Assembly (NCBI GenBank): GCA_016748015.1
Contig: JAAOMT010000441.1
Coordinates: 449,128-513,127 of the forward strand
DNA length: 64,000 bases
From: Geosiphon pyriformis uo1
Lineage: Eukaryota; Fungi; Glomeromycota
Reading direction: 5' to 3'
In this document: positions 749-40,319 of the stretch, in pieces
Layout: each line of letters starts with the position of its first letter
Position numbering within the stretch: position 1 is the first letter of the stretch
Position numbers and translations under genes: made by a program
Notes under the pieces: generated by a model
Databases searched by the model: none
What the model was told of the DNA's origin: nothing
Seen by the model: the letters and a program-made list of their open reading frames with translations, nothing else

Positions 749-960
749 TATTACCAGACAAAATTAGAGATATTATTTAGCATAAAATTATCTTATAATT
801 CCTATCATTAATTAGCATATATTATCGTTTCAAATTATCACTTATTACATTAGCAAAAATGTCCGAAATTATCATTTAATTAATAACCCAAATTGTACAC
901 AACACAAATGTAACCTAATTGCAATGATCAATCATGCAATACCCTGAACTATGTAATATT

Positions 961-1100
961 CAAAAGTTCGCCAAAATTTATAGAAATTTGCCGAAATAAT
1001 TGATAGTTCACCGAAATATCTAATAGTTCACCGAAATATCTAATAGTTCACAGAAATAACTTGTAGTTTGCCGAAATTTATCTTTAGTTCAGCAAAATTG
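961..1100 (+). repeat. 20-bp tandem array in LTR U3 (core GTTCRCCGAAA); 7 units here, 6 in the other LTRs
   Basis: Units begin at 961, 981, 1001, 1021, 1041, 1061 and ~1081. Confidence 0.85.
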
Positions 1101-1148
1101 TAAAAAATAACAAAGTTCAAGTTCATAGAATAGTGTTATGACAAGTTG

Positions 1149-1156
1149 TATAAAAG
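1149..1156 (+). promoter_or_regulatory. Putative LTR TATA box (TATAAAAG)
   Basis: GTTGTATAAAAGAAGAGC is identical in all four LTRs and lies just downstream of the repeat array. Confidence 0.6.
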
Positions 1157-1747
1157 AAGAGCTTCTCTCTTCGAGAAAATGTATCTTATTTTAGATTTAA
1201 CAATTAGAATCATCCTTTACACACAAAACGAAATAAATATCAAATAATTTGAAAAATCAAATCCTGAATCATTTCACTTTTGAAATTAACTAATTTCTAC
1301 AAAACAGTTTGAAATTGATTAGCTACCAATTTCAGTAAACTGTTAGTGACTTCAGGCCTGGATAGAAAATGTTTCTCTTAACAAAATTCTATTTCTTTTA
1401 CATTTCTTTTATTTTTCTTTTCTTTTCTTTTTATAATCATTAGAGTAGCCTACAGACAAGATTTCTGTAGAAGAGTTGACTTTCACAGCAAAGTAGCTAT
1501 ACATTTTAGTGAGCTTCCAGATGAGCAATTTCTGGGAAAGAGTTGACGTTTACTACAACGTAACTATATAAAGTAACTGGCACAGAATTGGTCATTCCAC
1601 TTATAAGCCCAGCAGTTCAAATTATAGAAGATAATTTGAAGATAAATTTAGTGATTGGAGGTTCAACCACATCCAGAAAACGGGAATTCACAGCAAACAA
1701 GCATTGACAACATTTAAGAAAAAAGACCAAAAACCTCCAGTAACATT

Positions 1748-1758
1748 TGGTGCTCTCC
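1748..1758 (+). promoter_or_regulatory. Primer-binding site (TGGTGCTCTCC)
   Basis: TGG starts 2 nt after the LTR end; copy 2 has TGGTGCTCT at 15686-15694. Complementary to a tRNA 3' end ...GAGAGCACCA. Confidence 0.75.
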
Positions 1759-1790
1759 CATGGAAACAACACAGCAAAAACAACTTCAAA

Positions 1791-4700
1791 GTGGTGACCA
1801 CACCAGACACAACAACTCTAGAGTATTACCAATCAATTTATACCCACTGCAAGCAAAGATTCAACATTCCAGACAGAATTAAAGTTGTCAAGAAATCAGT
1901 ATACCAATACATTGAAAACTGCATCAACAATTATCTTTTTGGAAATTACAATATTTCAGAAGTTAGAAGCAACCTTTACAATAATTTAACACACTATTCA
2001 CAGTTGGGAACTGAAGACCTTAATAGTGAAACACTTGCCACTTACTTTCACAAACTTAATTTTAACATTATCAAATACTGTGAAAAAACATATCCAGTGC
2101 AGTCTTAATACACTATTGATTTTGAATTGGAAACAGAAACAAGCAACAAAGGCAAAAACAAATTAAAGCAATATTCAAGAACCACCCCAAATACTCCAAC
2201 ACNNNNNNNNNNNNNNNNNNNNAAATCAGTATACCAATACATTGAAAACTGCATCAACAATTATCTTTTTGGAAATTACAATATTTCAGAAGTTAGAAGC
2301 AACCTTTACAATAATTTAACACACTATTCACAGTTGGGAACTGAAGACCTTAATAGTGAAACACTTGCCACTTACTTTCACAAACTTAATTTTAACATTA
2401 TCAAATACTGTGAAAAAACATATCCAGTGCAGTCTTAATACACTATTGATTTTGAATTGGAAACAGAAACAAGCAACAAAGGCAAAAACAAATTAAAGCA
2501 ATATTCAAGAACCACCCCAAATACTCCAACACTACCAAAAACAACTGCCAAACATTTACAAACACCTGAACAAGGAACCAGCTCAAAACTTCTATTTACT
2601 ATCACATCTTTTCTAGCTTCACTTGCACAAGCACAAACACCTAATTCACTCTTGAATCGATTTACAAGACCAGAAGATTTTACATCACTCAAAAGTCCCA
2701 CCAGACAACAAGAATCCCTTCAAACTAGTTTCAATCTCCTTGATTTTCTAGCTGAAAATCAAAGTGAACACTCTGAGACAGCAGCAAATGAAAAAAACAA
2801 CTCTGAAATAACTGAAAAAGAATCAATAGACAGTAAAAATAAAGAAGACGAAATAACAACATACATCGCAAAAATCCCTGAATTCAATGGAGAAGATATT
2901 GAGACCAGTCCCCAAGAATGGCTTGACCAAGTTACTAAAGCTGGAGATGCAAATAGATGGAATGCTGCCAGAATGTTAAGAACAATTCCCTACTTTCTCA
3001 AAGGAACAGCAGGAGAATAGTTTGAAAACTTGGCTGCCCCATTCAATGATTGAAACGCTTTCAAAGCAGCCTTTCTTGAACAGTTCACCGACAATAATAC
3101 TTCCATCACCCTTTGCAATTGTTTTTGAAATATCAAACAAGAACCCTCTGAATCTGTTATGACTTATATTGGGAAATTCAACAAACTTCTCAGACAAATT
3201 CGCCAACTCGAAACAAACGATTATTATTCCAATGCTTAAATCTTGGATCAATTTATTGCTGGTCTAAAAGATAAACTAATTAAAAAGGTTCGCCCACATG
3301 TGCCAGAAGATTTAAACTCTGCCATACAGCATGCGAAAAGATACGAAATGGCCATGGAAGAGACCAACCACACAAAACTTGTAAATTTGGCAATTGGAAA
3401 AACCAGCTTAGCAGCTGAGGAAAAAATTGACCAACTCACAAAGAAAGTTGAAAACTATTTCACCAATCAACAACAACAGCAACCCCAAAGATATCAACCA
3501 CCCCAAAGACGAAATCAAAATAACTTTGCACCACTTTCCAATATCCAGCCTTAGAATTGCCATTACTGTAGAATCTCTGGCTACTGGAGAAGAGATTGCA
3601 AAAAGCTACAACAAGACCAACAAAATAGAAGTAATCAATGTTACCCTCCACTACAACAATCTTATTATCAACCGCCACCACCAGCTTACTATCCACCAAG
3701 ACCCCAATACCAAAATAACTATTATCAGCCTGCCTCACAGCCAATCCAACAGCAATACCAACAACTGCTCATCCAACATTATCAAGTACCTGTTCAAAGA
3801 CTGCTTACACAGAATCCATTCATACCACAAAACCAATACCAAGTAAACAACAATAGAATCAGTTCGAATAACCAATTGGTTTCTCGAAATACCACTCAAC
3901 CAAGACCCAACCACTACCACACTCAATCCAGTTATTTAACAATGCCAGAAGAACAGGATTTTCACCATACTGTACTCTCGGAAGGTAGAGCTGCAGCACA
4001 ACAACAACAAAATCCTTCCTATACTCCCACTACAATTCCACCAGCCAGAATTGCTGAAAACACTAACCTTTCAAATATATTCCCTTTTAAGTTCAAAGCA
4101 AATAAGTCACCATTTCTGCTTAGCAATGCAGCCGCCAATGAACAAAAAGCAATCACGGCCATGTACACTAAAGCCGAAGTTGAAGGAAAAACAATTTACT
4201 TGATCCTAGACAGTGGATCCGCCGGAAGCATTATCACCTACCAGTTAATGCAACAGTTGAAAAGAAATGTCAACCGACCAGCTCAAACAGTAATCGTCAC
4301 TGCCGATGGCATGAAAAAGACCCCAGTAGGAGAAATTGACAATTTTCCATTCACTCTTGATGGAATCACCATTCCAGTCAAAGTTCTTGTAATGGACGCA
4401 CCCTAGTACCAAGCTCTCATCAGAAATGATTGGCTTCAAAAAGCCAATGCTAATCTGAATTGGAAAACACAAGAATTAACAATTTCTTACCAAGGACAAC
4501 ATGCCCGGGTACCTGTCATTTGTGGTACATTCAACAAATGCTCTGAAAAAGCCCTGGCTTTTGAATTCGAACTGGAAGAGGAAAAACCCCTCATTAAAAC
4601 ATTCATGGCTCTGGGATTAACGTCCAATTGGGCTGATGAAACAGAACAAGAACATTTTACCCCACACACTAAATCCGAAATCTCTGGATGGAATATATCT

Positions 4701-7700
4701 TACTCAAAACCCAAACCAAGGAAACAACGCCCCTATATTCCTCTTAAATATAAGAACTGTCACAAGAAACTATTGTCAATGGGAGCCTGCATTTCACCTG
4801 AAGAAGAATATGAGAATCATACTTGTTATTACTGCAAGGCTTGCCACAGAGAATGATGGGGCCATCTAATAAAAAGAAGTGGAAAATAGGACAACACCCC
4901 TTGTTTGACTTGTGGAGATATGCTACCAGAAGAATGCAATTAGATTGATGTAGCCATGAGAGGAGGAGTCTGCAATCAGACCTGCCAATATGCTTTATCA
5001 ATTTCAGAAAAAGTAAAAAGAGGAACACCCTTTAATGCAGCATACAACAGTGCTTTTAACAAACTTTATCACTACCCCCATGATGCCAAAATGATTTTCG
5101 ACCTAGCAATGGCATTAATTAATAGAGCTACCAAAGAAGATGTTCACCAAATGAAGGAAGCAGAATACATTGAATACACCATGAAATTAGCTGGATTTGA
5201 TTACGAAGACGAAGTAAAAATCTACCACCAAATTGCAAGTCACACCTACCCAACCCAAGAAGCTCAAATTCAATGATTAGAGCAAATGAACATTAGGCTA
5301 TGTGAAGAATGTATTATGCCTTGTGATGAACAGTGGTGTTCTGAATGCTATGCTCTTAGCATTCCCTTGTCCAGCAAAAATGATAAATATGAAATTGAAT
5401 TTGGAGAACTTGAAGTGACAGAAGAAATTGAGACAACACCCATCTATCTCATCAATAATCAGCCTGCTTTACAACTCAAATATTTCAACAACAATGGACA
5501 AGGAACAGAAAAAGCCCACAAGATCAATGTTGGATATGATCTAAGATATCCAGGAAAAGATACTCTTACTCTCAAACCCAAATCTCTCACAAAAATCAAC
5601 CTCAAAATTGCCCTCAAAATCCCACCAGAAGCAATGGTTCAAATTGCTTCTCGATCATCCTTGGCAAGCAAAGGAATCAATGTTAGAGGAGGAATCATCA
5701 ATGCTGGATACACAGGAGACATTACAGTCATGTTACAAAATAAAACTGATAAATCTTTCAAAATTGGATATGCTGAAAAAATTGCTTAAGCTATCTATTT
5801 ACCCTTAATCAATATTTTGGGTTTACAATTAGTTAATCAAAGAGAACAGTTGGGAAAAAGCGAAAGAGGAATACAAGGTTTTGGTTCAACTGGACGTTTC
5901 ACAGTTCCAGTAAACATAGCTCTCAATGAACAGAAAGAATCTCACCAGATTTTACAACTTCCACAACCAATTACCATTTCACCCTTTGGAGAACACCCTG
6001 AAATTTACATTTGTAAAAAGCCAACAACCACACAACAAATTTTTGAATCAAACAAACAAATCTACTTGAAACATAATATCTTGATCCCAAACATTTATAT
6101 TCCAGAAGGAACAAAGAAAGTCTGAGTTACTTTTTACAATCCCAACAATTATCCTATAGTTTTATTAAATAACTTAGAAATTGGAATCATTCACAGTAAT
6201 ATCTTTCAACAAGAATTACCCCAAACAGTCCCCGATTTTTCTGAAATTATTGGACATTCACTACCAAAAATCAACTCAAACCCCAGCTCTGAAAACTACC
6301 ATATTGTTATGGAAAAACTATCTCGAATCAACATGGGACAACTTGAACCACAACAACAAAACCAGCTCAAAAAACTAATTGCAGATTTTGCCGATATCTT
6401 TGCCAAAAACAACAATGACTTAGAAAGAACCGATTTGGTGCAACACTAATACAAGAGATGCCAAACCAAGGCGACAACAAGCCTACCGAGTTGCTCCAGA
6501 AAGCCACCAATTTATCCAAAAAGAAGTACAACAGATGCTTAACAATGGGCTTATCCAACCATCAATGAGTCCATGGGCCTCACCAGTGGTCCTGGTTAAA
6601 AAGAAAAATGGAAAGATACGATTTTGTGTTGATTATCGACAACTCAACAGTGTCACTATTGAGGATGCTTACCCTCTTCCGTGAATCGATGACATGTTAG
6701 ATGCCCTTGGAAAATCTAAATACTTTTCAACATTAAACCTAGAAAGCGGATACTGGCAAGTTGCCATGGATCCCAAGGACTGCCCCAAAACAGCATTCAC
6801 AACACAAGGAAGAAACTACAAATTCAATGTAATGCCCTTTGGATTATGCAATGCGCCAGCAACATTCCAAAGACTCATGGATGTTGTATATGCTGGACTC
6901 CTTTGGAAATCAGTAGTTGTCTATCTTGATAACACTGATGTTTATTCTCCATCTTTCGAACTTTATTTAATTCACCTGTGAGAAGTTTTTCAACAATTAC
7001 GTAGAGCAGGATTAAAACTAAACATTGAAAAATGCCATTTTGGAAAAACAAGTTTGGTCTTTCTTGGTCACATAGTTAATGAAGAAGGAGTCAAACCAGA
7101 TCCAGGAAAAATCAGTGCTGTTAAGAACTTCAAAGTTCCACAAAATACTACAGAACTAAGAGGATTCATAGGATTAGCATCCTACTATCGGAAGTTTATC
7201 AAAGAATTCTTGGAAATTGCAAAACCCCTCAACCAGCTCACCACCAAAAACGTTGAATACAAATGGACTACCAAACACCAAAAAGCTTTTGAAATCCTCA
7301 AGAAAAAACTAACAACAGCTCCAATCCTCGCCTACCCAGATTTCAACAACCGATTTCGACTAGCTACAGATGCTTCATATACTGCCTTTGGTGCCATCTT
7401 ATCACAACTAAATGACAATGGAAATGAGCAAGTAATTGCCTATGCTAGCAGAACATTAAAACCAGCTGAGAAAAACTACTCTGCCACAGAACTAGAAACA
7501 GCAGCTGTAATTTGGGCCCTACACCACTTCAACCTTTATCTCAGGCCTAAAAAATTCGATATTATCACTGATAATATTGGACTCAAATGGCTTCAGAACA
7601 AAAATACTCAGCTGAATGCAAAACAAACCCAATGGACAGGATTTCTAGCAAACTATTAATACATAGTACATCACAAACCAGGAAAACTCCACACCAATGT

Positions 7701-7731
7701 TAACTGTCTCTCCAGAATGAGACAAGATTAG
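1791..7731 (+). pseudogene. gag-PR-Cys-rich-dUTPase-RT-RNase H polyprotein of copy 1
   Basis: ORF pieces 2457, 3243, 3876, 4605, 4956, 5286 and 5817 share one frame. Motifs: capsid IPEFNG..WL; knuckle CHYCxISGxWxRDC; PR ILDSGSA; dUTPase GYDL/RSS/GYTGDI/GFGSTG; [39 protein letters not shown]; RH TDAS, YSATELE; ends SRMRQD-TAG. Many nonsense codons and one frameshift near 6447. Confidence 0.92.
5500..5900 (+). pseudogene. dUTPase domain within Ty3 copy 1 polyprotein
   Basis: All five trimeric dUTPase motifs recognisable: VGYDL, ASRSSLA, GGII(N)AGYTGDI, KIA(Q>stop)AI, RGIQGFGSTG. Confidence 0.92.
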
Positions 7732-7783
7732 AAAAACACAAAAACCAACACTCAACTTAACCAACCAAAAAAGCCAACAAACA

Positions 7784-9168
7784 ATAAATTCGAAAAACTA
7801 CAATGATCTCAAACAATATTTGGAAACATTAACAATCCCAACAGATTGGTCTTCAGAGGAAAAACATCGACTACAACAACAAGCCAAACAATATTTTCTA
7901 CACAACAACATTATTTATTACCGAAATTTCAAAAACTCAGACAAACCACTCAGATTAATACAAGAACAGGAAAAAGAAACTATATTATACAACATGCACT
8001 CAGATCCTTCATCAGCCCACTTCAGAAAAGACAGCACCACCCAAAGAACACTAGAATACTACTTTTGGCCTCAAATAAGAAAAGACATTCACGAATATGT
8101 CGAATCTTGTGATAGTTGTCAAAAAAGAGGAGGAACTTGCCCTACAGAACCTTTAAATCCAATCAAAGTTGAACAGTCTTTTGACAGAGTTGGTATCGAT
8201 TTAGTCAGACCACTACCTATCACAAACCAAGGAAACCACTACATTACAGTAGCCGTAGACTATCTCACCAAATAGCCTGAAGCCAGAGCCATTCAATGGG
8301 CAGATGCAAAATCAGTAGCAAACTTCATCTACAAAGACATCATTGTAGACATAGATGCCCAATAGAACTTTTATCTGATCAAGGAACACATTTCATGAAC
8401 AATTTAATCTAGGAAATTTGTGGACAATTTAATGTCAAGAGACCATTATCTTCATTCTACCATCCACAAACAAATGGACTGGTAGAATGGTTCAACAGAA
8501 CATTGTGTGAATCATTAGCCAAAGTTTCAACTGATTTTGAGCAAGAATGGAATCTCTTTATTCCATCAGTGTTACTAGCATATAGGACACTAAAACAAGA
8601 TATCACAAAACACACACCATTTGATTTAACTTACGGAAGGACGGCAACATTACCAATTAGTTTCACAGTGGAAACATACCCAGTACAACCAATCAATGAA
8701 AACAATTTCCAAGAAACGCTTCAACAAAGAGCCTACACTCTGCTTAGCACATTGGAAGAAAAACGACAAATAGCAGCCACTCATATTGAACACTCCCAAG
8801 CTCAACAAAAAGAATGGCATGATGACAAATTGCCTCCAGTCACCAATGAATTTAAAATTGGAAACAAAGTTCTCTTACATAGAACTAAAGCCGAAAAACA
8901 ATAAAATGGAAAATTTGAAAATAAATGGGATGGACCATTCTTTATCCATGAAGTTTTAGGCAACAGATCATATAAGCTAAGACTTGATGACAAAATTCTA
9001 GCAAAAGTTGCACATGGAGATCGTTTGAAACACTATAATTCCAGAAACAATTCTGAACTATTAATTCCACAAATTGGTACACATTTCCCTTTAATCAATT
9101 CCAAAGACATTCCCCAAAATTTAGAACCAATAGTTGTCATTGAACAGCCTCACAACTTGAATACTTAA
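7784..9168 (+). pseudogene. Integrase of copy 1 (separate ORF; start ATG mutated to ATA)
   Basis: HHCC (HSDPSSAH...CDSC), D (RVGIDL), D (LSDQG), E (GLVE), GPF motif (WDGPFFI). 1-nt deletion near 8343. No chromodomain. Confidence 0.9.
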
Positions 9169-9289
9169 TTTAAATTTATTATTATAGTTATCTTCTTATA
9201 ATTTAGAAACAATCTCACAAAAACAAAACAAAAATAACATAAAAACCCATGCACCAAAAATAATTTTCTTTTATTTCAAATTGCTTATA

Positions 9290-10009
9290 ATGACTATTCC
9301 TCAAAACATTCAACAATTATCCCAAAAACTAATGTTGGTTTTAAAAACAATACCCAAATTATCCATTACTGTTACTGAAAACCACATTAATTATACCCAA
9401 ACAGAAGTAGTTACAAATTTAGCCCCAAATTCACAAAAATATCACCCGTATAAGAAGAACACAAGAAGTTATACTGGAATTTACCTGCCAGAACTTTTAA
9501 AACTTGCTTTAAGAGAAAACCTAATGCTCACTTTGATTAGTATTCCACCAAATGCTACAATTCAACAAAGACTTCAACTGTGTTTCAATGAGGAAAATAC
9601 TGAATATCCTTCAATCTATAGATATTTTCACATTGGAAAAACACTCTACAAATGGAAACTGGAACTTACAACAGCAAACCTCACAAAAAAAGCTATTCAG
9701 AAACAACTTCACAACAAATTCAAGACAACAGCTGAATCAACAAACAGTCGCTACAGGCTTAGAGCTGCTCTTAGACTTTATGACTTATTCCACACCTGTG
9801 AAAACATACTACAAAACCCAAATTTTCAACCTTTGAAGATTCAATACATTGGAAAGCTCACAGAACTGAAATTTCAACAATTTTCAGACCAAATTTCTTC
9901 AATAATTTTGGATTATTATCTGGAAATGACAAACAGTACTTGGACTTTGACAGAGCTCAGTCTTGAAGAGGAGGTTATGTTACCAGACAAAATTAGAGAT
10001 ATTATTTAG
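9290..10009 (+). CDS. ORF3, uncharacterised 239-aa accessory protein in env position (intact frame)
   Basis: ATG at 9290; uninterrupted to TAG inside the 3' LTR. Same length (720 nt) as the homolog in copy 2. Confidence 0.8.
   Translation: MTIPQNIQQLSQKLMLVLKTIPKLSITVTENHINYTQTEVVTNLAPNSQKYHPYKKNTRSYTGIYLPELLKLALRENLMLTLISIPPNATIQQRLQLCFNEENTEYPSIYRYFHIGKTLYKWKLELTTANLTKKAIQKQLHNKFKTTAESTNSRYRLRAALRLYDLFHTCENILQNPNFQPLKIQYIGKLTELKFQQFSDQISSIILDYYLEMTNSTWTLTELSLEEEVMLPDKIRDII
9965..9974 (+). promoter_or_regulatory. Polypurine tract (GAAGAGGAGG)
   Basis: Ends 3 nt before the 3' LTR; GAGAAGGAAG at 23291-23300 in copy 2. Confidence 0.8.
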
Positions 10010-10954
10010 CATAAAATTATCTTATAATTCCTATTATTAATTAGCATATATTATCATTTCAAATTATCACTTATTACATTAGCAAAAATGTCCGAAATTA
10101 TCATTTAATTAATAACCCAAATTGTACATAACACAAATGTAACCTAATTGTGATGATCAATCATGCAATACCCCGAACTATGTAACATTCAAAAGTTTGC
10201 CAAAATTTATAGAAATTTGCTGAAATAATTGATAGTTCACTGAAATATCTAATAGTTCACAGAAATAACTTGTAGTTCGCCAAAATTTATCTTTAGTTCA
10301 GCAAAATTGTAAAAAATAACAAAATTCAAGTTCATAGAATAGTGTTACGACAAGTTGTATAAAAGAAGAGCTTTTCTCTTCGAAAAAATGTATCTTACTT
10401 TAGATTTAACAATTAGAATTATCCTTTACACACAAAACGAAATAAATATCAAATAATTTGAAAAATCAAATCCTGAATCATTTCACTTTTGAAATTAACT
10501 AATTCCTACAAAACAGTTTGAAATTGATTAGCTACCAATTTCAGTAAACTGTTAGTGACTCCAGGCCTGAATAGAAAATATTTTTCTTAACAAAATTCTA
10601 TTTCTTTTACATTTCTTTTATTTTTCTTTTCTTTTCTTTTTATAATCATTAGGGTAGCCTACAGACAAGATTTTTGTAGAAGAGTTGACTTTTACAGCAA
10701 AGTAGCTATACATTTTAGTGAGCTTCCAGATGAGCAATTTCTGGGAAAGAGTTGACGTTTACTACAACATAACTATATAAAGTAACTGGCATGGAATTGG
10801 CCATTCCACTTATAAGCCCAACAGTTCAAATTATAGGAGATAATTTGAAGATAAATTTAGTGATTGGAGGTTCAACCACATCCAGAAAACAGGAATTTAC
10901 AGCAAACAAGCATCAACAACATTTAAGAAAAGAGACCAAAAACCTCTGGTAACA
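9978..10954 (+). repeat. 3' LTR of copy 1 (977 bp)
   Basis: TGTTACCAGA...TCTGGTAACA, a perfect 10-bp terminal inverted repeat. Confidence 0.95.
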
Positions 10955-11682
10955 CTGTTCAAACAAGCATTCAGAAGACCATCCAGCCCAATAGACATCA
11001 AGACAGCCAAGTGATCTGTGTCAAAAAATTCTGAGACAAAACCAACATCATGATTTACAACAGCTGAAATCAAAGAGTCACTAACTAGAATATAGTCCAA
11101 AACCTTGCTAATGCCTCTTGAATTGCTCCAAGTAGGAATCCTAGCTAGAGAATGGCCACCAAAAACATTAACTAGACCCAAACCTAAGCATTTTCTAAGA
11201 CTCACCCTCTTGACTGAATTGTCTTTATTAAAGTCCCCACCCAAAACAACAAAAATACTTTTGTTAACAGTATCAGCAATGAATGAATTGATAACAAAAG
11301 CCTGAGCAAAATGGTCACCACCAGACACACAAGCATAAAGCCCAATGATAGACACAGAGAGCTTGTTCTTAAACAAAAGACAAATTGAAAGAACTTTGCC
11401 CTTTACCTCCTCAACTTTGAAAACATGACAAGCCAGAGAATCATTCACAAAAATGGCCACACCAGCCCCACAAAACCCAACATCCAGACCAAACATAAAA
11501 ACCCAAACACTCTCAAATTTTTTCATAATCCAAGGTTGTGAACTGGAACACAACTTGGTTTCTGTAACAATCAAGATTGAACTACCAGATTCCTTATACC
11601 AATGAAAAATGTTCTTCTGTTTTGCAGGATTGTTCATTCCCCTAATATTACACATGGCAATTTTCCAAATAAAACTGGTCAT
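10955..11682 (-). pseudogene. LINE-A ORF2 N-terminal APE endonuclease
   Basis: MTSFIWKIAMCNIRGMN...VTETKL...GGDFN...TWSN...LDYI...TDH. ATG at 11682 overlaps the ORF1 stop. Confidence 0.92.
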
Positions 11683-13506
11683 TGTGACAAAGAGATAACC
11701 AAAGAACCTGAGCCAGCACACAACTGATCCAACTTAGCCAAAATCAAACCAACAGAGATGTTGAGGGCAACCAACTTCAACTCTAGACCACCAACTTTGG
11801 AAGTCAAGACTTTGGAACTACTCAGACCCAAGAGCAGATCAGTAACACCCAGAGAGAAAGAAGTAGGCTGAACAAAAAGATCATCAACTGCCATGTCAAA
11901 ATCCAAGTCGGAGTTTGTAACCACAAGAAAAACAGAGGTTGGAGACTGAGAAACAACCACAGAAGGAACCATTTGAGAGGAGGGTGCCAAGAGTGCCAAA
12001 CCAATATTGTCAAGACGAGAAAGAATGTTCAAAATTTGATCAGACAGAAGCCCTACAGAGCATTCTAAAAGCGCTAAGCGAACACTCAAAGGAGAATTGA
12101 CCACAGATATAGAGGGAGGTGCCTCACCTGAACTTAAAGTACTGGAAGGCGGGGAACCGGAACCAGAACCAGCATGAAAACCATGAGAGACTAAAGCAAC
12201 TGAGACCACTTGAGCCCAAGATTTGCCACCAAAGGCAACAGGACGAGAGATTAGTACATTTTTCTTTACATACAATTTGGCCAGCTGGAAATAAGTATCT
12301 AGGTTGGCAGGTCTTATAAAAAACTTTGAAGATTTAAGAGCTGATGCAACCTCAGCATCACATTTCAAGGCAGAATGACCGAACTTCCCACACTATTCAC
12401 AGTAAACCAAATTCAGCCTAGCCCATGAGAGTTTTACACCACCAAAAATTGGCTCCGTACGAAAAGCTAACTCCAAAACCTCATCAGAATCAAAACAAAC
12501 AACAGCACAGCAGACCCTATTACCAGTCTCTAATAACCAATTTATGACACAAGTCTTTTCACCAGCCCCTTCAAGAAGATCCCCAAAATCATGAGCAGTA
12601 GTTCCTACTGGCAAAATAAACAAAAGCGCCCTGAACTGATTTCTAGATGCCCAAGTTTCATGATAGCCCACCGCCATAGCCACACGAACCAAATCTTTAC
12701 CAATCAGGAAGGACCACCTAGCAGCCAAAAACACAGCCTGTTCCAGTTCAGCAAATTCCACCACAGCCTTTTGCCATAAACCAATTAACTGGATTTTAAT
12801 CGACTTAATTTTTCCAAACTCGGATACTGTGGCGATAATCATTTCCTTGATTACTACGGCCTGATCTGAGTAAATTCTTTGTCTTTTAAGATCACTGTTT
12901 ACTATGATGTTATTTTCTCTGGCCAATAACACGGCCTTTTCCATGCTTTCTGACAAAGTAAACATTGATTTGATGATCCCTTCAAATTTTAAGGAAGTAG
13001 TGGCCCCCCCAAAACCATTGATTTCTGAAAATAATTTCCTTATGACCTAAGTTTTAGCTGTTGCCGATTTCCCTTCTACAGCCAAAAGATTGATATTCAA
13101 AGCAAAAGATTTCTTCACAGCTACTTCCACCAGAGTTTTAACAATTTTGGGGTCCACTCACATCTTTTCTAAAGAGAAAGACAAATGGAAAGAAAGAGAA
13201 ACTTCCTTCTCATCATCTATGTCATAATTAATAGAGCCAAAAAGGGAACTGATAGCCACACCAGTATTAAAACACTTTGCATTAGGTGTATTCATTTGGG
13301 AGTCAGAAGTGGCTCTACTATCAAAGTCTTCTCCATCCGTATCCATGCTAGTAAGTTGCCCATTCACACTAACAGGCCCACTATCTTTAAGATTCTTATC
13401 CGCACTTGAAAGTTTAAGGCTTTTTGACTTTTTGAGTTAAACCACCACCAATTGAACTAGTGGTCAAGACTCTGGCAGACCTTCTCTTAGCACTAGGACC
13501 ACTCAT
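11679..13506 (-). pseudogene. LINE-A ORF1 (RRM-like, zinc knuckle, C-terminal coiled region); 5' limit approximate
   Basis: VSEFGKIKSIKIQLIGLWQKAVVEF, CExCGKFGHSALKC and RPVAFGGKSWAQV, homologous to ORF1 at 45832-47790. Confidence 0.85.
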
Positions 13507-14069
13507 AGTGGTAGCTGGTCTAACAACAAAAGGGTTTGATTCTTGTGAAATAGTGGAAGACAGTATGCAAAAACAGAAAAAAACTTCTTTCAAAATTTGA
13601 CTTTTTTTCAGAAATTTGGAATGAAGGAAAGAAAAAAGTTTTTTCTTTAATTTTATTATAAAAATTTAGTTTTATTTTTTTATTTTTAAAGTAAACTTTT
13701 TAACTTGATTTTAATATAAAGTTTTTATTTTAAAAAAATATATAAAAATTTTTACTAATATAAAATTAATATATATAATAAATAATTTATAAATTTTTTA
13801 GTTAGTATTAACTTTTGGCTTTATATATATAAAAAATAACAATAAAGCGAATATAAATACAAAATTTGTAAACAATATTATAAAAAATTGTTTATTAAAA
13901 AAAATATTAATATATTAATTAAAATAATATAAACAATAAAACAAAAAAAATTGATCTACTATGATGTATATTATCTTAACTTACACATTTTTTACAAAAG
14001 TGCCAATTTTTTTTAAGCTGTTTTATATAATCTAATAAAGTAATTTACAAGTAATATGTAGACATATAT

Positions 14070-14701
14070 ACACATATACAGCAATATTCTATTTGGTCAA
14101 AATTTGTTTTATAATATTCACTAAATATAGACATATACTAATATTATATCAATATTTACTTTTTATTTAAAGATATTATAATTTGTTTAACTAATAGCTA
14201 ATATATACATATATACATATATACACATATATACAGTTTAAGATATTGCTAATATTAATGATATTTTAAGTAACAAATGATTATTATTTGGCCAAAATTT
14301 GTTCTATAATATCTGCTAAATATAAGCATGTACTAATATTATATTAATGTCTACTTTTTATTCAAAAATATTATAATTTGTTTATCTAATAGCAAGAATA
14401 CATACATATATATATACAGTTAAAGGTACTGCTGATATTAATAATATTTTAAATAACAAGTGGTTGTTGTTTGGTTAAAAGTTATTATATTATATTAATC
14501 AAACATAGATATATACTAATATTATATTAATGCATACATTTTATTCAAAAATATTATAACTTGTTTATCTAATAGCAAGAATATACACACACATATATAT
14601 ATAGCCAAAAATGCTATTAATATTAGTAATATTTTAAATAACAAGTAGTTGCTATTTGGCTAAAATTTGTTATATTGTATTAATCAGATATAAGTATATG
14701 C
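14070..14701. repeat. ~185-195 bp tandem repeat (about 4 units; the 4th continues at 24290)
   Basis: Anchor CTAATATTATAT recurs at 14138, 14333, 14516 and across 14701/24290. Length variation lies in an (AT)/(AC) tract. Confidence 0.85.
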
Positions 14702-15683
14702 TGTTACCAGACAAAATTAGAGATATTATTTAGCATAAAATTATCTTATAATTCCTATCATTAATTAGCATATATTATCATTTCAAATGATCACTTATTA
14801 TATTAGCAAAAATGTCTGAAATTATCATTTAATTAATAACCCAAATTGTATACAACACAAATATAACCTAATTGCGATGATCAATCATGCAATACCCCAA
14901 ACTATGTAACATTCAAAAGTTTGCCGAAATTTATAGAAATTCACCGAAATAATTGATAGTTCACCGAAATATCTAATAGTTTGCAGAAATAACTTGTAGT
15001 TTGCCAAAATGTATCTTCAGTTCAGCAAAATTGTAGAAAATAGCAAAGTTCAAGTTTATAGAATAGTGTTATAACAAGTTGTATAAAAGAAGAGCTTCTC
15101 TCTTCGAGAAAATGTATCTTACTTTAGATTTATCTCTTAAAACCGTTCTTATACACACAAAAAAAAATAAATATCAAATAATTCGAAAAACCAAATTCTT
15201 TAATTATTGTACTTGGAAAATCCCCAAAACCCAACTAACATTTCGAAATTGATTAGCTACCAATTTCAGTAAACTGTTAGTGACTCCAGGCCTAGATAGA
15301 AAACGTTTTCCTTGATAAAATCCTATTTCTTTTACACTTCTTTTATTTTTCTTTTCTTTTCTTATTACAATCATTAGGGTAGCCTACAGATGAGATTCCT
15401 GTAGAAGAGTTGACTTTCACAGCAAAGTAACTACACATTTTTAGTGAGCTTCCAGATGAGCAATTCCTGGGAAAGAGTTGACATTTACTACAACATAACT
15501 ACATAAAGTAACTGGCAAGGAATTGGCCATTCCACACATAAGCCCAGCAAATTCAAATTATAGGAGATAATTTGAAGATAAATTCAGTTACTGGAAGTTC
15601 AACCACATCCAAAAAACGTGAATTCACAGTAAATAAGTATTAACAACATTACAGAAAAGAGACCAAAAAAACCTCTGATAATA
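14702..15683 (+). repeat. 5' LTR of copy 2
   Basis: TGTTACCAGA...TCTGATAATA (transition-mutated end). Confidence 0.95.
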
Positions 15684-15730
15684 TTTGGTGCTCTTCTACA
15701 GAAACAACACAGCAAAAAAACAACTTCAAA

Positions 15731-18700
15731 GTGGTGATCACACCAGACACAACAACTTTAGTGTATTACCAATCAATTTACACCCACTGCAAGCAAAGAT
15801 TCAACATTCCAGACAGAATTGAAGTTGTCAAGAAATCAGTATACCAATACATTGAAAACCACATTAACAATTATCTTTTTGGAAATTACAATATCTCAGA
15901 AGTTAGAAGCAACCTTTACAATAATTTAGCACACTATTTACAGTTGGGAACTAAAGACCTTAATAGTGAAACACTTGCCACTTACTTTCACAAACTTAAG
16001 TTTAACATTATCAAATACTGTGAAGAAACATATCCAATGCAGTCTCAATACACTATTGATTTTGAATCAGAAACAGAAACAAGCAACAAAGGCAAAAACA
16101 AATTAAAGCAATATTCAAGAACCACCCCAAATACTTCAACACTACCAAAAACAACTGCCAAACATTTACAAACACCTGAACAAGGAACCAGCTCAAAACT
16201 TCTACTTACTATTACATCTTTTCCAGCTTCACTTGCACAAACACAAACACCTAATTCACTCTTAAATCGATTTGCAAGACCAGAAGATTTTACATCACTC
16301 AGAAGTCCCACCAGACAACAAGAATCCCTTCAAACTAGTTTCAATCTCCTTGATTTTCTAGCTGAAAATCAAAGTGAACACTCTGAGACAGCAGCAAATG
16401 AAGAAAACAACTCTGAAATAACTGAAGAAGAATCAATAAACAGTGAAAATGAAGAAGACGAAATGACAACATACATCGTAAAAATTCCTGAATTCAATGG
16501 AGAAGATATTGAGACCAGTCCCCAAGAATGGCTCAACCAAGTTACTAAAGCTGGAGATGCAAATGGATGGAATGCTGCCAGAATGTTAAGAACAATACCC
16601 TACTTTTTTAAAGGAACAGCAAGAAAATGGTTTGAAAATCTTGCTGCCCCATTCAATGATTGGAATGCTTTCAAAGCAGTCTTCCTTGAACAGTTCATTG
16701 ACAATAATACTTCCATCACTTTTCGCAATCATTTTCGAAATATCAAACAAGAACCCTCCGAATCTGTTATGACTTATATTGGAAAATTCAACAAACTTCT
16801 CAGATGGATTCGCCAACTCGAGACAAACAATTATTATTCTGATGCTCAAATTTTGGATCAATTTATCACTGATCTAAAAGATAAACTAATTAAAAAGGTT
16901 CGCCCACACGCGCCAAAAGATTTAAACTCTGCCATACAGCATGCAAAAAGATATGAAATGGCCATGAAAAAAGCCAATCGTACAAAACTTGTAAATTTGG
17001 CAATTGGAGAAACCAGCTCAGCAGCTGAGAAAAAAATTGACCAACTCACAAAGAAGGTCGAAAACTATTTTACCAACCAACAACAACAACAACCCCAAAG
17101 ATATCAACCACCCCAAAGACAAAATCAAAATAACTTTGCACCACTTTCCAATAACCAGCCCCAGAATTGCCATTACTGTGAAATCTCTGGCCACTGGAAA
17201 AGAGATTGCAGAAAGCTGCAATGAAACCAACAAAATAGAGATAATCAATATTACTCTCCACCACAGCAATCTTATTATCAATCATTACCACCAGCTTACT
17301 ATTCACCAAGACCCCAATACCAAAATAACTATTATCAGCCCATCCCACAACCAATCCAACAGCAATACCAATAACCACCCACTCAACATTATCAAGTACC
17401 TACTCGAAGACTGATTACACAAAATCAATTTACACCACAAAACTGATACCAAGTAAACAACAGTAGAATCAGTTTGAACAACCAATTAGTTCCCCGAAAT
17501 ACCACTTAAACAAGACCCAACCATTACTACACTCAACCCAGTTATTTAACAATGCTGGAAAAACAGGATTTTCACCATACTGCACTCTCGGAAGGTAGAG
17601 CTGCAGCACAACAACAATGAAACCTTTCTCATAACCACACCACTATTCTACCAGCCTGAATTGCTGAAAATGCCAATCTCTCTAATATCTTTTCTTTTGA
17701 ATTTGAAGCAAATGAATCACCATTCTTGCTTAGCAATGCAGCGGCTAATGAGCAAAAAGTCATCACTGCAATGTACACAGAAGCTGAAATAAAAGAAAAG
17801 CCAATTCGCTTGATTCTAGACAGTGGATCTGCTGGAAGCATTATTACCTACCAGTTAATGCAACAGTTGAAAAAAAATGTTGACTGACCAGCTCAAACAG
17901 TAATTGTCACTGCCGATGGCATGAAAAAGACCCCAGTAGGAGAAATTGACAATTTTCTATTTACTTTTGATGGAATCACCATTCCAGTCAAAGTTCTTGT
18001 AATGAACACACTCCAGTACCAAGCTCTTGTCGGAAATGATTGGCTTCAAAAAGCCAATGCTAATCTGAATTGGGAAACACAAGAGTTAACAATCTCCTAC
18101 CAAGGACAACACGCCTGGGTATCTGCCATTTGTGGTACATTCAACAAACGCTCTAAAAAAGCCCCAGCTTTTGAATTTGAACCAGAAAAAGAAAAACCAA
18201 TAATCGAAACATTCATGGCTCTTGGATCAACGTCCAACTGGGCCGATGAAACAGAACAAGAATATTTTACCCCACACACTAAACCTGAAACCTCTGGATG
18301 GAATATACCTTACTCAAAACCCAAACCAAGGAAACAACGCCCCTATATTCCCCTTAAATGTAAGGACTGTCACAAAAAACTATCATCAATGGGAGCCTGC
18401 ATTTTGCCTGAAGAAGAATATGAGAATCATATTTGTTATTACTGCAAGGCTTGCCACAGAGAGCGATGGGGCCATCTAATAAAAAGGAGCGGAAAATGGG
18501 ACAACACCCTTTGTTTGACTTGTGAAGATATGCTACCAGAAGAATGCAATTGGATTAATGTAGCAATGAGAGGAGGCGTCTGTGATCAGACTTGCCAATA
18601 TGCTTTATCAATTTCAGAAAAAGTAAAAAGAGGAACACCCTTTAATATAGCATATAATAGTGCTCTCAACAAACTTTATCACTACCCTCATGATGCCGAG

Positions 18701-21066
18701 ATGATTTTCGACTTAGCAATGGCATTAATTAATGGAGCTACCAAAAAAGATGTTCATCAAATGAAGGAAGCAGAATACATTGAATACACTATGGAATTAG
18801 CTGGATTCAATTACGAAGATGAAGTAGAAGTCTACCACCAAATTGCAAGTCACACCTACCCAACTCAAGAAGCTCAAATTCAATGATTAGAGCAAATGAA
18901 CATTAGGCTATGTGAAGAATGCATTATGCCTTGCAATAAACAATGGTGTTCTGAATGCTATGCTCTTAGTATCCCTTTGCCCAGCGAAAATGATGAGAAT
19001 GAAATTGAATTCAGAGAACCTGAAGAAATGGAAGAAATTGAAACAACACCCATCTACCTTATTGAAAATCAGCCTGCCTTACAACTTAAATACTTCAACA
19101 ACAACGGACAAGGAATAAAACCTGAAAAAACACACGAAATTGATGCTGAATATGACCTAAGATATTCAGGCAAGGATACTCTTGTTCTCAAACCCAAATC
19201 TCTCACAAAAATTAACCTCAAAATTGCATTCGAAATCCTGCCAGGAGCAATGATTCAAATTGCCTCCCAGTCCTCTCTGGCAAGCAAAGAAATCAATGTT
19301 AGAGGAGGAATAATTGATGCTGGATATACTGGAGACATAACAGTGATGCTTCAAAATGAAACTGACAAACCATTCAAGATCAAACATGCTGAGAAAATTG
19401 CCCAAGCTATTTACCTATCCTTAATCAACATTTCGGGTTTGCAACTAGTCAATCAAAGAGAACAATTAGGAAAAAGCGATAGAGGAACCCAAGATTTTGG
19501 TTCAACTGGACGATTCACAGTTCCAGTTAATATAGCTCTTAACACACAGAACAAATCCCACCAGATTCTCAGACTTTCACAACCAATTACCATCTCACCC
19601 TTTGGAGAACATCCGGAAATCTACACTTGCACAAAGCCAACAACCACACAACAAATTTTTGAGTCCAATGAACAAGTCTGCTTGGAACATAATATTTTGA
19701 TCCCAAACATTTATATTCCAGAAGGAACAAAGAAAGTCCAAGTTACTTTTTACAACCCCAATAATTACCCCATAATTTTATTAAATAATTTAGANNNNNN
19801 NNNNNNNNNNNNNNNNNNNNNNNNNNNNNNNNNNNNNNNNNNNNNNNNNNNNNNNNNNNNNNNNNNNNNNNNNNNNNNNNNNNNNNNNNNNNNNNNNNNN
19901 NNNNNNNNNNNNNNNNNNNNNNNNNNNNNNNNNNNNNNNNNNNNNNNNNNNNNNNNNNNNNNNNNNNNNNNNNNNNNNNNNNNNNNNNNNNNNNNNNNNN
20001 NNNNNNNNNNNNNNNNNNNNNNNNNNNNNNNNNNNNNNNNNNNNNNNNNNNNNNNNNNNNNNNNNNNNNNNNNNNNNNNNNNNNNNNNNNNNNNNNNNNN
20101 NNNNNNNNNNNNNNNNNNNNNNNNNNNNNNNNNNNNNNNNNNNNNNNNNNNNNNNNNNNNNNNNNNNNNNNNNNNNNNNNNNNNNNNNNNNNNNNNNNNN
20201 NNNNNNNNNNNNNNNNNNNNNNNNNNNNNNNNNNNNNNNNNNNNNNNNNNNNNNNNNNNNNNNNNNNNNNNNNNNNNNNNNNNNNNNNNNNNNNNNNNNN
20301 NNNNNNNNNNNNNNNNNNNNNNNNNNNNNNNNNNNNNNNNNNNNNNNNNNNNNNNNNNNNNNNNNNNNGCTACTTCAGAAAAACAAGTTTAGCTTTTCTT
20401 GGTCACATTGTTAGCAAAGATGGAATTAAACCAGACCCCGGAAAAATCAGTACTGTCAAGAACTTCAAGACTTCACAAAATACCACAGAATTAAGAAGAT
20501 TTATTGGATTAGCATCCTATTACCGAAAATTCATCAAAAGATTCTCAGAAATTGCAAAACCCCTCAACCAGCTCACTACTAAAAATGTCGAATACAAATG
20601 GACAGAAGAACACCAAAATGCCTTCGAGATACTTAAGGAAAAACTCACAACAGCTCCAATTCTTGCCTATCCAGATTTCAGCAACTGATTCCAGTTAGCA
20701 ACTGACACCTTTTATACTGCATTTGGTGTCATTCTATTATAGTTAGATGACAATGGAAATGAGCGAATAATTGCTTATGCTAGTAGAACATTAAAGTCAG
20801 CCGAAAAGAACTACCCCGCAACAGAATTAGAAACCACAACAGTAATTTGGGCCCTACATCACTTCAACCTTTACCTCAGACCCAAAGAATTTGATATTAT
20901 CACTGATAATATTGGACTTAAATGGCTTCAAAACAAAAACACCCAGCTAAATACAAAACAAACCTGATGAACAGGATTTTTAGCTAATTACCAATACATC
21001 ATACACTACAAACCAGGAAAACTCCACACCAACGTTGATTGTCTCTCAAGGATGAGGCAAGATTAA
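15731..21066 (+). pseudogene. gag-PR-Cys-rich-dUTPase-RT-RNase H polyprotein of copy 2
   Basis: ORFs 15731, 17921 and 18896 share one frame. Motifs CHYCEISGHWKRDC, ILDSGSA, GGIIDAGYTGDI, KIAQAI; RH ends SRMRQD-TAA at 21064-21066. Confidence 0.92.
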
Positions 21067-21115
21067 AAAACAAAACCAACACCCATTTGAATTAACAGCA
21101 TCAAAACAACAAACA

Positions 21116-22501
21116 ATGAACCCCGAAAACTACAACAATTTCAAACAATATTTGAAGACATTAACAATCCCAACAGATTGGTTCCCAGATAAAAAACATT
21201 GGTTACAACAACAAGCCAAACAATATTTTCTACACAACAACATTATCTATCATCGAAATTTCAAAAACCCAACCAAACCACTCAGATTAATACAAAAACA
21301 AAAAAAAGAGACCATTTTATACAATATGCACTCAGATCCTTCATCAGCACACTTCGAAAAAGATAGCACTACCCAAAGAACACTAGAATACTACTTTTGG
21401 CCTTGAATGAAAAAAGACATTCACAAATATGTCGAATCTTGTGATAGTTGTCAAAGAAGAAAAGGAACTCGCCCTACAGAATCTTTAAATCCAATCAAAG
21501 TTGGACAGCCTTTTAACAGAGTTGGTATCAATTTAGTTGGACCACTATCTATTACCACTCAAGGAAACCGTTATATTGCAGTAGCTATAGATTATCTTAC
21601 TAAATGGCCTGAAGCCAGAGCCATTCAACGAGCAGATGCAAAATCAGTAGTAAATTTCATCTACGAAGACATCATTTGTAGACATAGATGTCCAATTGAA
21701 CTTTTATCTGATCAGGGAACACACTTTGTGAACAACCTGATACAAGAAATTTGTGAACAATTCAATGTCAAAAGACCTTTGTCTTCGCCCTACCATCCAC
21801 AAACAAATGGACTTGTAGAACATTTTAACAGAACATTGTGTGAGTCATTAGCCAAAGTCTCAACCGATTTTGAGCAAGAATGGGATCTCTTTATTCCATC
21901 AGTGTTACTAGCATATAGGACATTAAAACAAAATACCACGAAACACACACCATTTGATTTAACTTATGGAAGGATGGCAACATTACCAATTAGTTTCACA
22001 GTGGAAACATACCCAGCACAACCGATCGATAAAAACAATTTCCAAGAAATGCTTCAGCGAAGAGCCTATACTCTGCTTAGCACATTGAAAGGAAAACAAC
22101 AAATAGCAGCCACTCATATTGAACACTCTCAAGCTCAACAAAAAGAATGGCATGATGACAAATTGCTTTCAGTCACCAATAAATTCAAAATTAGAAACAA
22201 AGTTCTCTTATACAGAACTAAAGCTGAAAAACAATGGAGTGGAAAATTTGAAAATAAATGGGATGGACCATTCTTTATCCATGAAGTCCTAGGCAATGGA
22301 TCATATAAGCTAAGACTTGATGACAAAATCCTAGCAAAAGTTGCACATGGAGATCGTTTGAAACACTATCATTCCAGAAACAATCCTAAACCATTAATTC
22401 CACAAATTGGTACACATTCCTTTTTGATCAGTCCCGAAGATATTCCCTGAAACTTAGAACCAATAGTTGTCATTGAACAACCTTCCAATCTGAACACTTA
22501 A
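21116..22501 (+). pseudogene. Integrase of copy 2 (own ATG, ~461 codons, two internal TGA)
   Basis: MNPENYNNFKQYL...HSDPSSAH...CDSC...LLSDQG...PYHPQTNGLVE...WDGPFFI...LEPIVVIEQP. Confidence 0.92.
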
Positions 22502-22615
22502 TTTAATTTTACTAGTTATTCTCTTATAATTTAGAACAATCTCACAAAAACAAAACAAAAATAACATAAAAACCCATAAACCAAAAATAAATTTTTATTT
22601 TTTCAAGTGCTTATA

Positions 22616-23335
22616 ATGACTATTTCTTAAAACATTCAACAATTATCCCAAAAACTAATGTTAGCTTTAAAAACAATACACAAATTATTCATTACTGTTA
22701 CTGGAAACCACATAAATTATACCTAAACAGAAGTAGTTACAAATTTAGCCCCAAATTCATGAAAATATCACCCGTATAAAAAGAACACAAGAAGTTATAC
22801 TGGAATTCACCTGCCAGAACTTTTAAAGCTTGCTTTAAGAGAAAACCTAATGCTCACTCCGATTAGTATCCCACCAAATGCTACAAGTCAACAAAAACTT
22901 CAACTGTGTCTCAATGAAGAAAACACTGAATATCCTTCAATCTATAGATATTTTCACATTGGAAAAACACTCTACGAACGGAAACTGGAACTTACAACAG
23001 CAAACCTCACAAAAGAAGCTATTCAGAAACAACTCCACAACAAATTCAAGACAACAGCTGGATCAACAAACAGTCACTATAGGCTTAGAACTGCTCTTAG
23101 ACTTTATGACCTATTCCACACCTGTGAAAACGTACTACAAAACCCAATTTTTCAACCTTTGAAGATCCAATACATTGGAAAGCTTACAGAACTGAAATTT
23201 CAACAATTTTCAGACCAAATTTCTTCAATAATTTTGGATTATTATCTGGAAATAACAGACAGTACTTGGACTTCGACAGAGCTTAGTCTTGAGAAGGAAG
23301 TTATGTTACCAGACAAAATTAGAGATATTATTTAG
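22616..23335 (+). pseudogene. ORF3 of copy 2 (three premature stops)
   Basis: ATG at 22616; collinear with 9290-10009 without indels. Stops are TAA/TGA at codons that are CAA in copy 1. Confidence 0.85.
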
Positions 23336-24285
23336 CATGAAATTATCTTATAATTCCTATTATTAATTAGCATATATTATCATTTCAAATGATCACTTAT
23401 TACATTAGCAAAAATGTCCGAAATTATCATTTAATTAATAACCCAAATTGTACACAACACAAATGTAATCTAATTGTGATGATCAATCATGCAATACCCC
23501 AAACTATGTAACATTCAAAAGTTCGCTGAAATTTATAGAAATTTGCCAAAATAATTGATAGTTCACCGAAATATCTAATAGTTTGCAGAAATAACTTGTA
23601 GTTTACCGAAATGTATCTTTAGTTCAGTGAAATTGTAGAAAATAGCAAAGTTCAAGTTTATAGAATAGTGTTATGACAAGTTGTATAAAAGAAGAGCTTC
23701 TCTTTTCGAGAAAATGTATCTTACTTTAGATTTATCTTTTAAAACCATTCCTATACACACAAAAAAAAATAAATATCAAATAATTCAAAAAACTAAATTC
23801 TTTAATTATTGTACTTGGAAAATTCCCAAAACCCAACTAACATTTCGAAATTGATTAGCTACCAATTTCAGTAAACTGTTAGTGATTCCAGGCCTGGATA
23901 GAAAACGTTTTCCTTGATAAAATTCTATTTCTTTTACACTTCTTTTATTTTTCTTTTTTTTTCTTATTACAATTATTAGGGTAGCCTACAGACGAGATTT
24001 CTGTAGAAGAGTTGACTTTCATAGCAAAGTAACTACACATTTTTAGTAAGCTTCCAGACAAACAATTCCTGGGAAAGAGTTGACATTTACTACAACGTAA
24101 CTACATAAAGTAACTGGCAAGGAATTGGCCATTCTACATATAAGCCCAGCAAGTTCAAATTATAGAAGATAATTTGAAGATAAATTCAGTTACTGGAGGT
24201 TCAACCACATCCAGAAAACGTGAATTCACAGCAAATAAGTATTAACAACATTACAGAAAAGAGACCAAAAAAACCTCTGGTAACA
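23304..24285 (+). repeat. 3' LTR of copy 2
   Basis: TGTTACCAGA...TCTGGTAACA. Confidence 0.95.
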
Positions 24286-40280: not shown

Positions 40281-40319
40281 CAAAGTTTGGTTTGGTTTAA
40301 TTTAATTAAAATTTTAATA

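Follow-up and report, generated by a model that had tools for sequence, protein, structure and literature searches.

Two Gypsy-type elements with a separate integrase gene

The 64,000-nucleotide (nt) stretch of the Geosiphon pyriformis uo1 genome analysed here (contig JAAOMT010000441.1, positions 449,128 to 513,127; hereafter the window) carries on its plus strand two Gypsy-type long terminal repeat (LTR) elements, A (749-10954) and B (14702-24285), which are 88-95% identical segment by segment. Both have the same layout: an N-terminal extension, Gag, protease (PR), a cysteine cluster, dUTPase, reverse transcriptase (RT) and RNase H (RH), then a stop, integrase (IN), a second stop, and a third open reading frame (ORF3). 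LTRs, target-site duplications (TSDs) and Pfam matches to Retrotrans_gag, aspartyl protease, dUTPase, RVT_1, RT_RNaseH, Integrase_H2C2 and rve bear out the initial annotation, which had recognised both elements with all their modules at these positions. The three-ORF layout, its conserved stop and IN start, and the homology of ORF3 across a lineage of related elements constitute our main finding, in which we have high confidence.

Element A is flanked by the TSD CTGT (745-748 and 10955-10958). Its LTRs (749-1745 and 9978-10954) are 95.9% identical, all 40 of their 40 differences being transitions, and the 5' LTR contains a 20-bp internal duplication. The primer-binding site (PBS; 1748-1765) begins TGGTGC, as it does in six relatives. 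One decayed frame (1758-6449) encodes the N-extension, Gag (CA and CCHC), a Q/P-rich linker, PR, the Cys cluster and dUTPase. RT-RH (6451-7731) is offset from it through a 5-nt deletion at ~6448 and ends at the ancestral stop. An A/C-rich spacer of 52 nt without ATG (7732-7783) separates this stop from the stand-alone IN ORF (7784-9168), whose start has decayed to ATA and which has a 1-nt deletion at 8343. The intact ORF3 of 239 amino acids (aa; 9290-10009) crosses the polypurine tract (PPT; 9964-9973) and extends 32 nt into the 3' LTR. An assembly gap lies at 2203-2222, with a duplicated flank of 310 bp.

Element B is flanked by the TSD ATGC (14698-14701 and 24286-24289) and has LTRs at 14702-15683 and 23304-24285 (95.1% identity; 48/48 differences are transitions). 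One decayed frame (15692-19794) holds the N-extension (to 16463), Gag from Met 16464, PR, the Cys cluster (~18332-18980) and dUTPase (~19120-19510). An assembly gap of Ns (19795-20368) covers the RT core, followed by the end of RT and RH (20369-21066). The stand-alone IN ORF has its own ATG (21116-22501) and encodes a YPYY-like N-terminus (identified by eye), H2C2, the DDE core and GPF, while ORF3 (22616-23335) is decayed, with three stops, and likewise enters the 3' LTR.

The LTRs end in TG..CA; decay has altered two termini, namely the 5' end of A and the 3' terminus of the 5' LTR in B. A sits within a minus-strand long interspersed nuclear element (LINE) and B within a ~185-bp tandem repeat, and the two are therefore independent insertions. 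Both copies are dead: the LTR differences are all transitions and each copy has many premature stops. Every CpN context is represented among the LTR-pair transitions, with CpG over-represented for its frequency, a pattern that methylation-driven deamination would fit better than CpA-specific repeat-induced point mutation. No tRNA genes were found in the window, and an Rfam search of positions 1-25000 returned nothing useful.

The first ORF

Gag is recognised by Retrotrans_gag (E 1e-12); the zf-CCHC match (E 0.007) is below the cut-off, and a CX2CX4HX4C knuckle is visible in B. The N-extension, which matches no Pfam family, stays open for ~250 codons in frame with Gag despite AT-rich DNA. In A there is an ATG inside the PBS, but the frame is 2 nt short afterwards; B keeps the frame and has no ATG. 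The Cys cluster is present in both copies and may bind zinc. Between A and B, the synonymous share of transitions is 0.72 in RH, 0.60 in dUTPase and 0.54 in the Cys cluster, against a neutral share of 0.33-0.35; it is weaker in IN (0.41 and 0.51), and the main N-extension block shows no synonymous enrichment (4/21).

The in-frame fusion of gag and pol claimed by the initial annotation holds as far as dUTPase, these modules sharing one frame in both copies. The join between dUTPase and RT is intact in neither, A being frameshifted at ~6449 and B interrupted by its gap. One contig with a depth of 1028 has five extra letters at 6448 that put RT in frame, and this single high-depth contig supports a progenitor in which dUTPase and RT were probably fused.

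The RNase H stop and the integrase start

RH ends at the identical codon in both copies (7729-7731 in A, 21064-21066 in B), and IN follows in the +1 frame, 52 nt (A) or 49 nt (B) downstream. IN carries the GPY/F motif as KWDGPFF in both copies and has no chromodomain match; the best solved-structure match of its profile is Ty3 (E 4e-50). In family contigs from run X1 (possibly the window's own sample) no alternative letter occurs in the stop at 7729-7731 at a 3% threshold, and the IN-start ATG is present in ~95% of the depth (G at 7786 in 35029 of 36807). A 1-nt spacer indel segregates among these contigs (19858 of 49487 depth), none of which contains a continuous RT-RH-IN frame.

The split layout among relatives

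The window IN retrieved 1227 protein matches of 244-777 aa. Among the 120 listed homologues (43-53% identity), 119 start with Met, most of them at the same place, and five are named Rhizophagus irregularis. From soil metagenomes, 80 loci were kept out of 542 confirmed; they were recruited with a profile of stand-alone IN, which biases the set towards split elements. RH lies upstream of IN in 37 of these relatives, and none has the two fused. The IN ATG falls in each of the three frames relative to RH (11, 13 and 12 cases, plus one locus without an ATG), with spacers of -20 to 943 nt, the 943-nt case coming after a premature stop. The ATG overlaps the RH stop or lies within 2 nt of it in 11/36 relatives and 24-97 nt downstream in 17/36.

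Because the IN-side loci had been recruited with stand-alone INs, a search was also made from the RT side. It yielded 120 long proteins, 83 of which have one full RT-RH (truncation at contig ends was not checked). Grouped by identity, those carrying IN were 0/18 at 54% or above, 6/32 at 52-54%, 17/28 at 50-52% and 4/5 below that. Of the 56 proteins without IN, 50 terminate within 30 aa of RH. The claim that Pol is broken before IN is thus upheld by the stop in both copies and the family contigs and by the 18 closest polyproteins. A continuous RT-RH-IN frame together with an unconserved ORF3, which the initial annotation had named as the pattern contrary to its reading, was seen neither in the family contigs nor in the 37 relatives. 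These counts support an ancestral split between RH and IN that marks a wide lineage and is not a product of decay. A search of viral contigs found nothing close, the best match (30% identity) being L081, a fused element.

The other modules are less constant. The 80 metagenome loci gave no match to the dUTPase, the Cys cluster or the N-extension. dUTPase occurs in 5/120 RT-side proteins, two of which form one clade with the window (support 98). Gag and Pol are in separate frames in some relatives, and a stop interrupts the PR-RT junction in others. What stays constant across the lineage is a stand-alone IN and, in most cases, ORF3; families differ in the N-extension, Cys cluster and dUTPase.

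Several further features of the relatives were noted. The stop between PR and RT is in frame in seven loci (L005:2882, L006:870, L028:902, L030:3290, L056:3358, L069:1585 and L077:929), in the context TGA-CTA in six and TAG-CAA-TTA in one. We take these contexts to resemble those of alphavirus and tobamovirus readthrough; the PR-RT junction is an unusual place for readthrough. Five loci (L019, L024, L029, L037 and L042) have an extension of 235-343 aa after RH with a common Cys/His-rich motif and, in the four scanned, no significant Pfam match. A common domain before Gag, with His residues, CxxC and an FWxW-like motif, is found in L014, L019, L024, L030, L037, L042, L046 and L056; the window N-extension does not align with it. 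A NUDIX/MutT domain replaces dUTPase in the pol of 3/120 RT-side proteins (P0293, P0311 and P0314) and forms the third ORF in L009 (1945-2889), suggesting that nucleotide-sanitising enzymes have been captured repeatedly. Contigs L024, L039, L046 and L056 have terminal overlaps and are circularly permuted whole elements with one LTR, either collapsed repeats or one-LTR circles.

ORF3 is conserved across the lineage

At least 199 protein clusters match the window ORF3. All 119 named matches among the 120 listed are from Geosiphon pyriformis, where they are annotated as hypothetical proteins, and the Geosiphon homologues comprise two subfamilies of ~85% and ~63% identity. A profile of the Geosiphon proteins (39 rows) matches one of 17 metagenome ORFs, with no sequence in common, at 94.5% (E 8e-8). 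The wider ORF3 profile matches downstream of IN in 26 of the 42 loci with at least 500 nt there, 23 of these 26 having helped to build the profile. A narrow profile searched against 50% representatives gave 36 matches, six of them distant. ORF3 ends no more than 45 nt from a PPT-TGT junction in 13 of the 24 loci examined for this, as in the window. Conservation of ORF3 across the lineage is supported, as the initial annotation had proposed.

The window ORF3 matches no Pfam family, has an isoelectric point of 9.2 and lacks a membrane span (maximum 19-residue hydropathy 1.01), in keeping with its description as a non-membrane protein. Most ORF3 cores are basic. The ORF3 of relative L001 is predicted to be all-helical, with eight helices and a predicted local distance difference test (pLDDT) score of 94; the window ORF3, modelled from Geosiphon-only rows, gave no confident fold (pLDDT 41). 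Foldseek searches of PDB and BFVD with the L001 model returned nothing at E 0.001. Its best VIA match (Z 5.1; root-mean-square deviation 3.2 over 69 residues) is to generic helical repeats, and a new fold is not thereby shown. Atlas matches to a closterovirus coat protein and a RegA-like repressor, with 126-158 features in common, serve only as leads. We suggest that ORF3 is a nucleic-acid-binding helper.

An identity of ORF3 as Env was considered and rejected: there is no membrane span, the model from the relative is all-helical and no Pfam match was obtained. The label 'virus-like' given to the elements is accordingly unsupported. In L039 (6987-8225) and L042 (2599-3694), an interval of ~1.1-1.2 kb between IN and ORF3 contains a reverse-strand charged ORF.

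Phylogeny and comparison with known elements

RT-RH and IN trees were built from database hits, without curated GyDB, REXdb or Repbase references. In a 133-row RT-RH tree, the split elements fall in several supported clades within a polytomy; one row, P0335, was wrongly labelled as split there and was excluded from later trees. With 58 hand-picked RT-RH rows, 35 split elements group together with P0303 at a Shimodaira-Hasegawa-like approximate likelihood ratio (SH-aLRT) of 84. The IN tree groups 29 split rows at 92 and the full 30 together with P0303 and an Athila-like IN (P0280, on a long branch) at 99. A single split clade was not rejected on 40 rows by the approximately unbiased test (p-AU 0.77), which is non-rejection and not proof. 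The split elements are probably one lineage. Chromodomain-bearing matches such as P0250 fall outside the split group in the RT-RH tree, as does the Athila-like RT, in contrast to its IN.

The elements share with Ty3/Gypsy (Metaviridae) the TG..CA LTRs, PBS, PPT, 4-bp TSD, Gag with CA and CCHC, PR-RT-RH-IN order and GPF motif, but differ in having IN outside Pol and a conserved soluble ORF3 after it; they are Gypsy-type and not canonical Metaviridae members. dUTPase between PR and RT is known from fungal and rotifer Gypsy elements, namely PosPlaTy3-5 (Postia), Phanerochaete, Tuber Tmt1 and bdelloid lineages (PMC2864245, PMC6431247, PMC5408684). These resemble the window elements in the position of dUTPase and, in rotifers, in having extra ORF3s (PMC5408684), yet a separate IN is not mentioned in these sources, as far as accessible. 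The ORF3 of rotifer elements is Env-like, GDSL or DEDDy (PMC5408684), unlike that of the window with its lack of a Pfam family.

YPYY-type integrases are listed for Ginger1 transposases, Athila/Tat, Cer1, Gypsy-1-I_RO and DGLT-A1 (PMC2836005). By eye, the window IN shows a YPYY-like motif of ~40 aa ahead of H2C2, with Y-P-Y-Y-like spacing; the elements also have GPY/F, TGT termini and a 4-bp TSD in common with this group. Ginger1 differs in its terminal inverted repeats (40-270 bp), CCGG/CCGT targets and lack of RT (PMC2836005), and an identity as a Ginger1 DNA transposon was rejected, the window IN lying within LTRs beside RT, with TSDs CTGT and ATGC. Chromovirus was likewise rejected, as no chromodomain is found at the IN C-terminus. 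Troyka/Kuafuorterviruses offer a parallel as an unusual Gypsy-like LTR lineage recognised late (PMC12440569, PMC11673190). Troyka, a metazoan group, has CG termini, a 3-bp TSD and a CX2CX8-10HX4C knuckle, keeps IN in a single Gag-Pol and lacks GPY/F (PMC12440569, PMC11673190); the window elements, with TG..CA, a 4-bp TSD, GPF and a CX2CX4HX4C knuckle, are not Troyka. For Tat, an extra RNase H encoded in its own ORF is already published.

No description of a separate IN ORF was found in the accessible open literature, including PMC10508981, PMC3248453, PMC6317226 and bioRxiv 10.1101/2021.03.30.436303, with Repbase Reports and subscription journals set aside. To that extent the proposal of a distinct, possibly undescribed lineage stands. 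Gypsy-1-I_RO, one of the YPYY-type entries above, could be a filed member of it. The novelty lies in the stand-alone IN plus the conserved soluble ORF3. The initial annotation had listed several added accessory modules in the distinct layout; as novelty this survives for ORF3 but not for the N-extension, Cys cluster or dUTPase, none of which was found in the 80 loci and the last of which is published (PMC2864245); gag-pol fusion is also already known.

Expression of the separate integrase

The elements are Gypsy-type, with Gag-PR-dUTPase-RT-RH closing at a stop and IN and ORF3 as separate genes, and would move by ordinary tRNA-primed copy-and-paste through a Gag particle. The favoured reading, in which our confidence barely tips past even, is that ribosomes terminate after RH and restart at the next AUG of the same RNA to make IN. 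It is favoured because the short spacers are AUG-poor: 18 of them contain 4 ATGs against 15.5 expected (0/2000 shuffles), a count that omits the 11 overlap cases, L011 and L055, takes L039 from a later stop and includes related, non-independent loci. A purine occupies position -3 in 43/48 IN starts. Restart would yield less IN than Gag and RT-RH, in place of the usual dose-setting frameshift. Untied from Gag, IN might be carried into the particle through binding to its own RNA, or meet the cDNA at a later stage. The soluble, mostly basic, helical ORF3 would assist the IN step as a helper, and may itself be read through a second restart or from a spliced RNA.

Several observations weigh against this reading. 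The window IN starts 49-52 nt past the RH stop with no overlap, and the spacer exceeds 150 nt in 8/36 relatives. Six long spacers tested are at chance for ATG (30 against 31.9 expected), and therefore no single mechanism covers the whole lineage. As to ORF3, no match was found in 16 of the 42 loci, 4/30 cores are acidic, and its synonymous share between A and B (0.41) is barely higher than the neutral 0.35. The depletion of ATGs would be equally well explained by a subgenomic or spliced 5' end, which brings in the main rival, possible though on the unlikely side: that IN and ORF3 are translated from subgenomic RNAs produced by splicing or internal initiation, the route used for foamy virus Pol and retroviral Env. 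Some relatives have long, ATG-rich spacers, the AT-rich IN-ORF3 spacer of the window has TAG acceptor-like sites (by eye), and rotifer ORF3s are typically made from spliced messages (PMC5408684). On the other hand, splicing does not need the tight spacing seen in the 11/36 relatives whose IN ATG overlaps or abuts the RH stop, and no conserved acceptor is apparent by eye upstream of IN across 48 starts.

Internal ribosome entry at IN, through RNA structure or an A-rich leader before the AUG, is improbable. A structured motif of ~45 nt does lie directly before the IN ATG in 16/80 loci (for example L015:579-630 and L019:4457-4507), with two-sided changes at 7/9 pairs, pairing in 94% of cells and no Rfam match in the seven loci scanned. 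However, it is absent from window positions 1-25000 (best E 2) and from 64/80 loci, and the pair counts are biased in its favour, the structure having been drawn from the same sequences with stem pairing as a selection filter. Still less probable is a minor RT-RH-IN fusion product made by frameshifting, readthrough or a stop-removing intron. For it speak the +1 frame, which in both window copies is already open 9 nt ahead of the RH stop and continues into IN, with a net difference of 3 nt between the spacers; three Rhizophagus clarus gene models (P0302, P0313 and P0320) that join RH to IN; and P0303, a true RH-IN fusion nested among split elements in both the RT-RH and IN trees. The joined models and P0303 also count against a uniformly split lineage, but the R. 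clarus models lack the last RH motif. Spacers occur in all three frames, with lengths from -20 to >700 nt, the 1-nt indels segregate in the family and the IN Met is conserved. Least credible of all, and very nearly dismissed, is that the split reflects decay or misassembly of a canonical Gypsy element. Mutations are numerous in both copies, and C-to-T changes create stops easily, but the stop is identical in both copies and the family contigs, the long open relatives L019, L024 and L037 are split too, and the absence of fusion in 37 relatives and the RT-side survey contradict it. The view that the layout came from the progenitor is borne out by that shared stop, the IN ATG at ~95% and the relatives.

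Other features of the window

A decayed LINE with an apurinic/apyrimidinic (AP) endonuclease (3-748 and 10955-13046, minus strand) is split by element A. Another decayed LINE, encoding RT and RNase H, lies at 45748-52700 (plus strand), with an inverted partial relative at 60974-62372 (minus strand). The ~185-bp tandem repeat (14024-14769 and 24286-24345) is split by element B, and a separate 114-bp tandem repeat occupies 38711-39052. Three nested inverted-repeat arm pairs centred near 41950 (40309-43589) represent a decayed palindrome of ~3.3 kb. Two host genes encode a LEA/apolipoprotein-like repeat protein (29126-30580, minus strand) and an ABC1 atypical kinase (55697-56896, plus strand).

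Implications

Retroviral and LTR-retrotransposon integrase enters the particle as part of Gag-Pol. A successful lineage without this link requires other means of dosing and delivering IN. The lineage includes relatives in the model symbiont Rhizophagus irregularis, judging from the named IN matches, and LTR sequence makes up 41.2% of G. pyriformis (PMC11952901). For annotation, stand-alone IN gene calls may be misread as DNA transposases. More tentatively, and with doubt outweighing belief, these elements could represent a major, so far undescribed LTR-retroelement clade that abounds in Glomeromycotina and soils. In it, IN would have left the polyprotein altogether and would act as a free Ginger1-like transposase delivered by a new-fold helper, ORF3, while the RH-IN boundary would be a hot spot of translation control, marked by stop codons that overlap starts, spacers free of AUG and a new structured RNA. 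If this were true, the free-IN clade would represent a surviving intermediate stage linking DNA transposases to Gypsy integrases.

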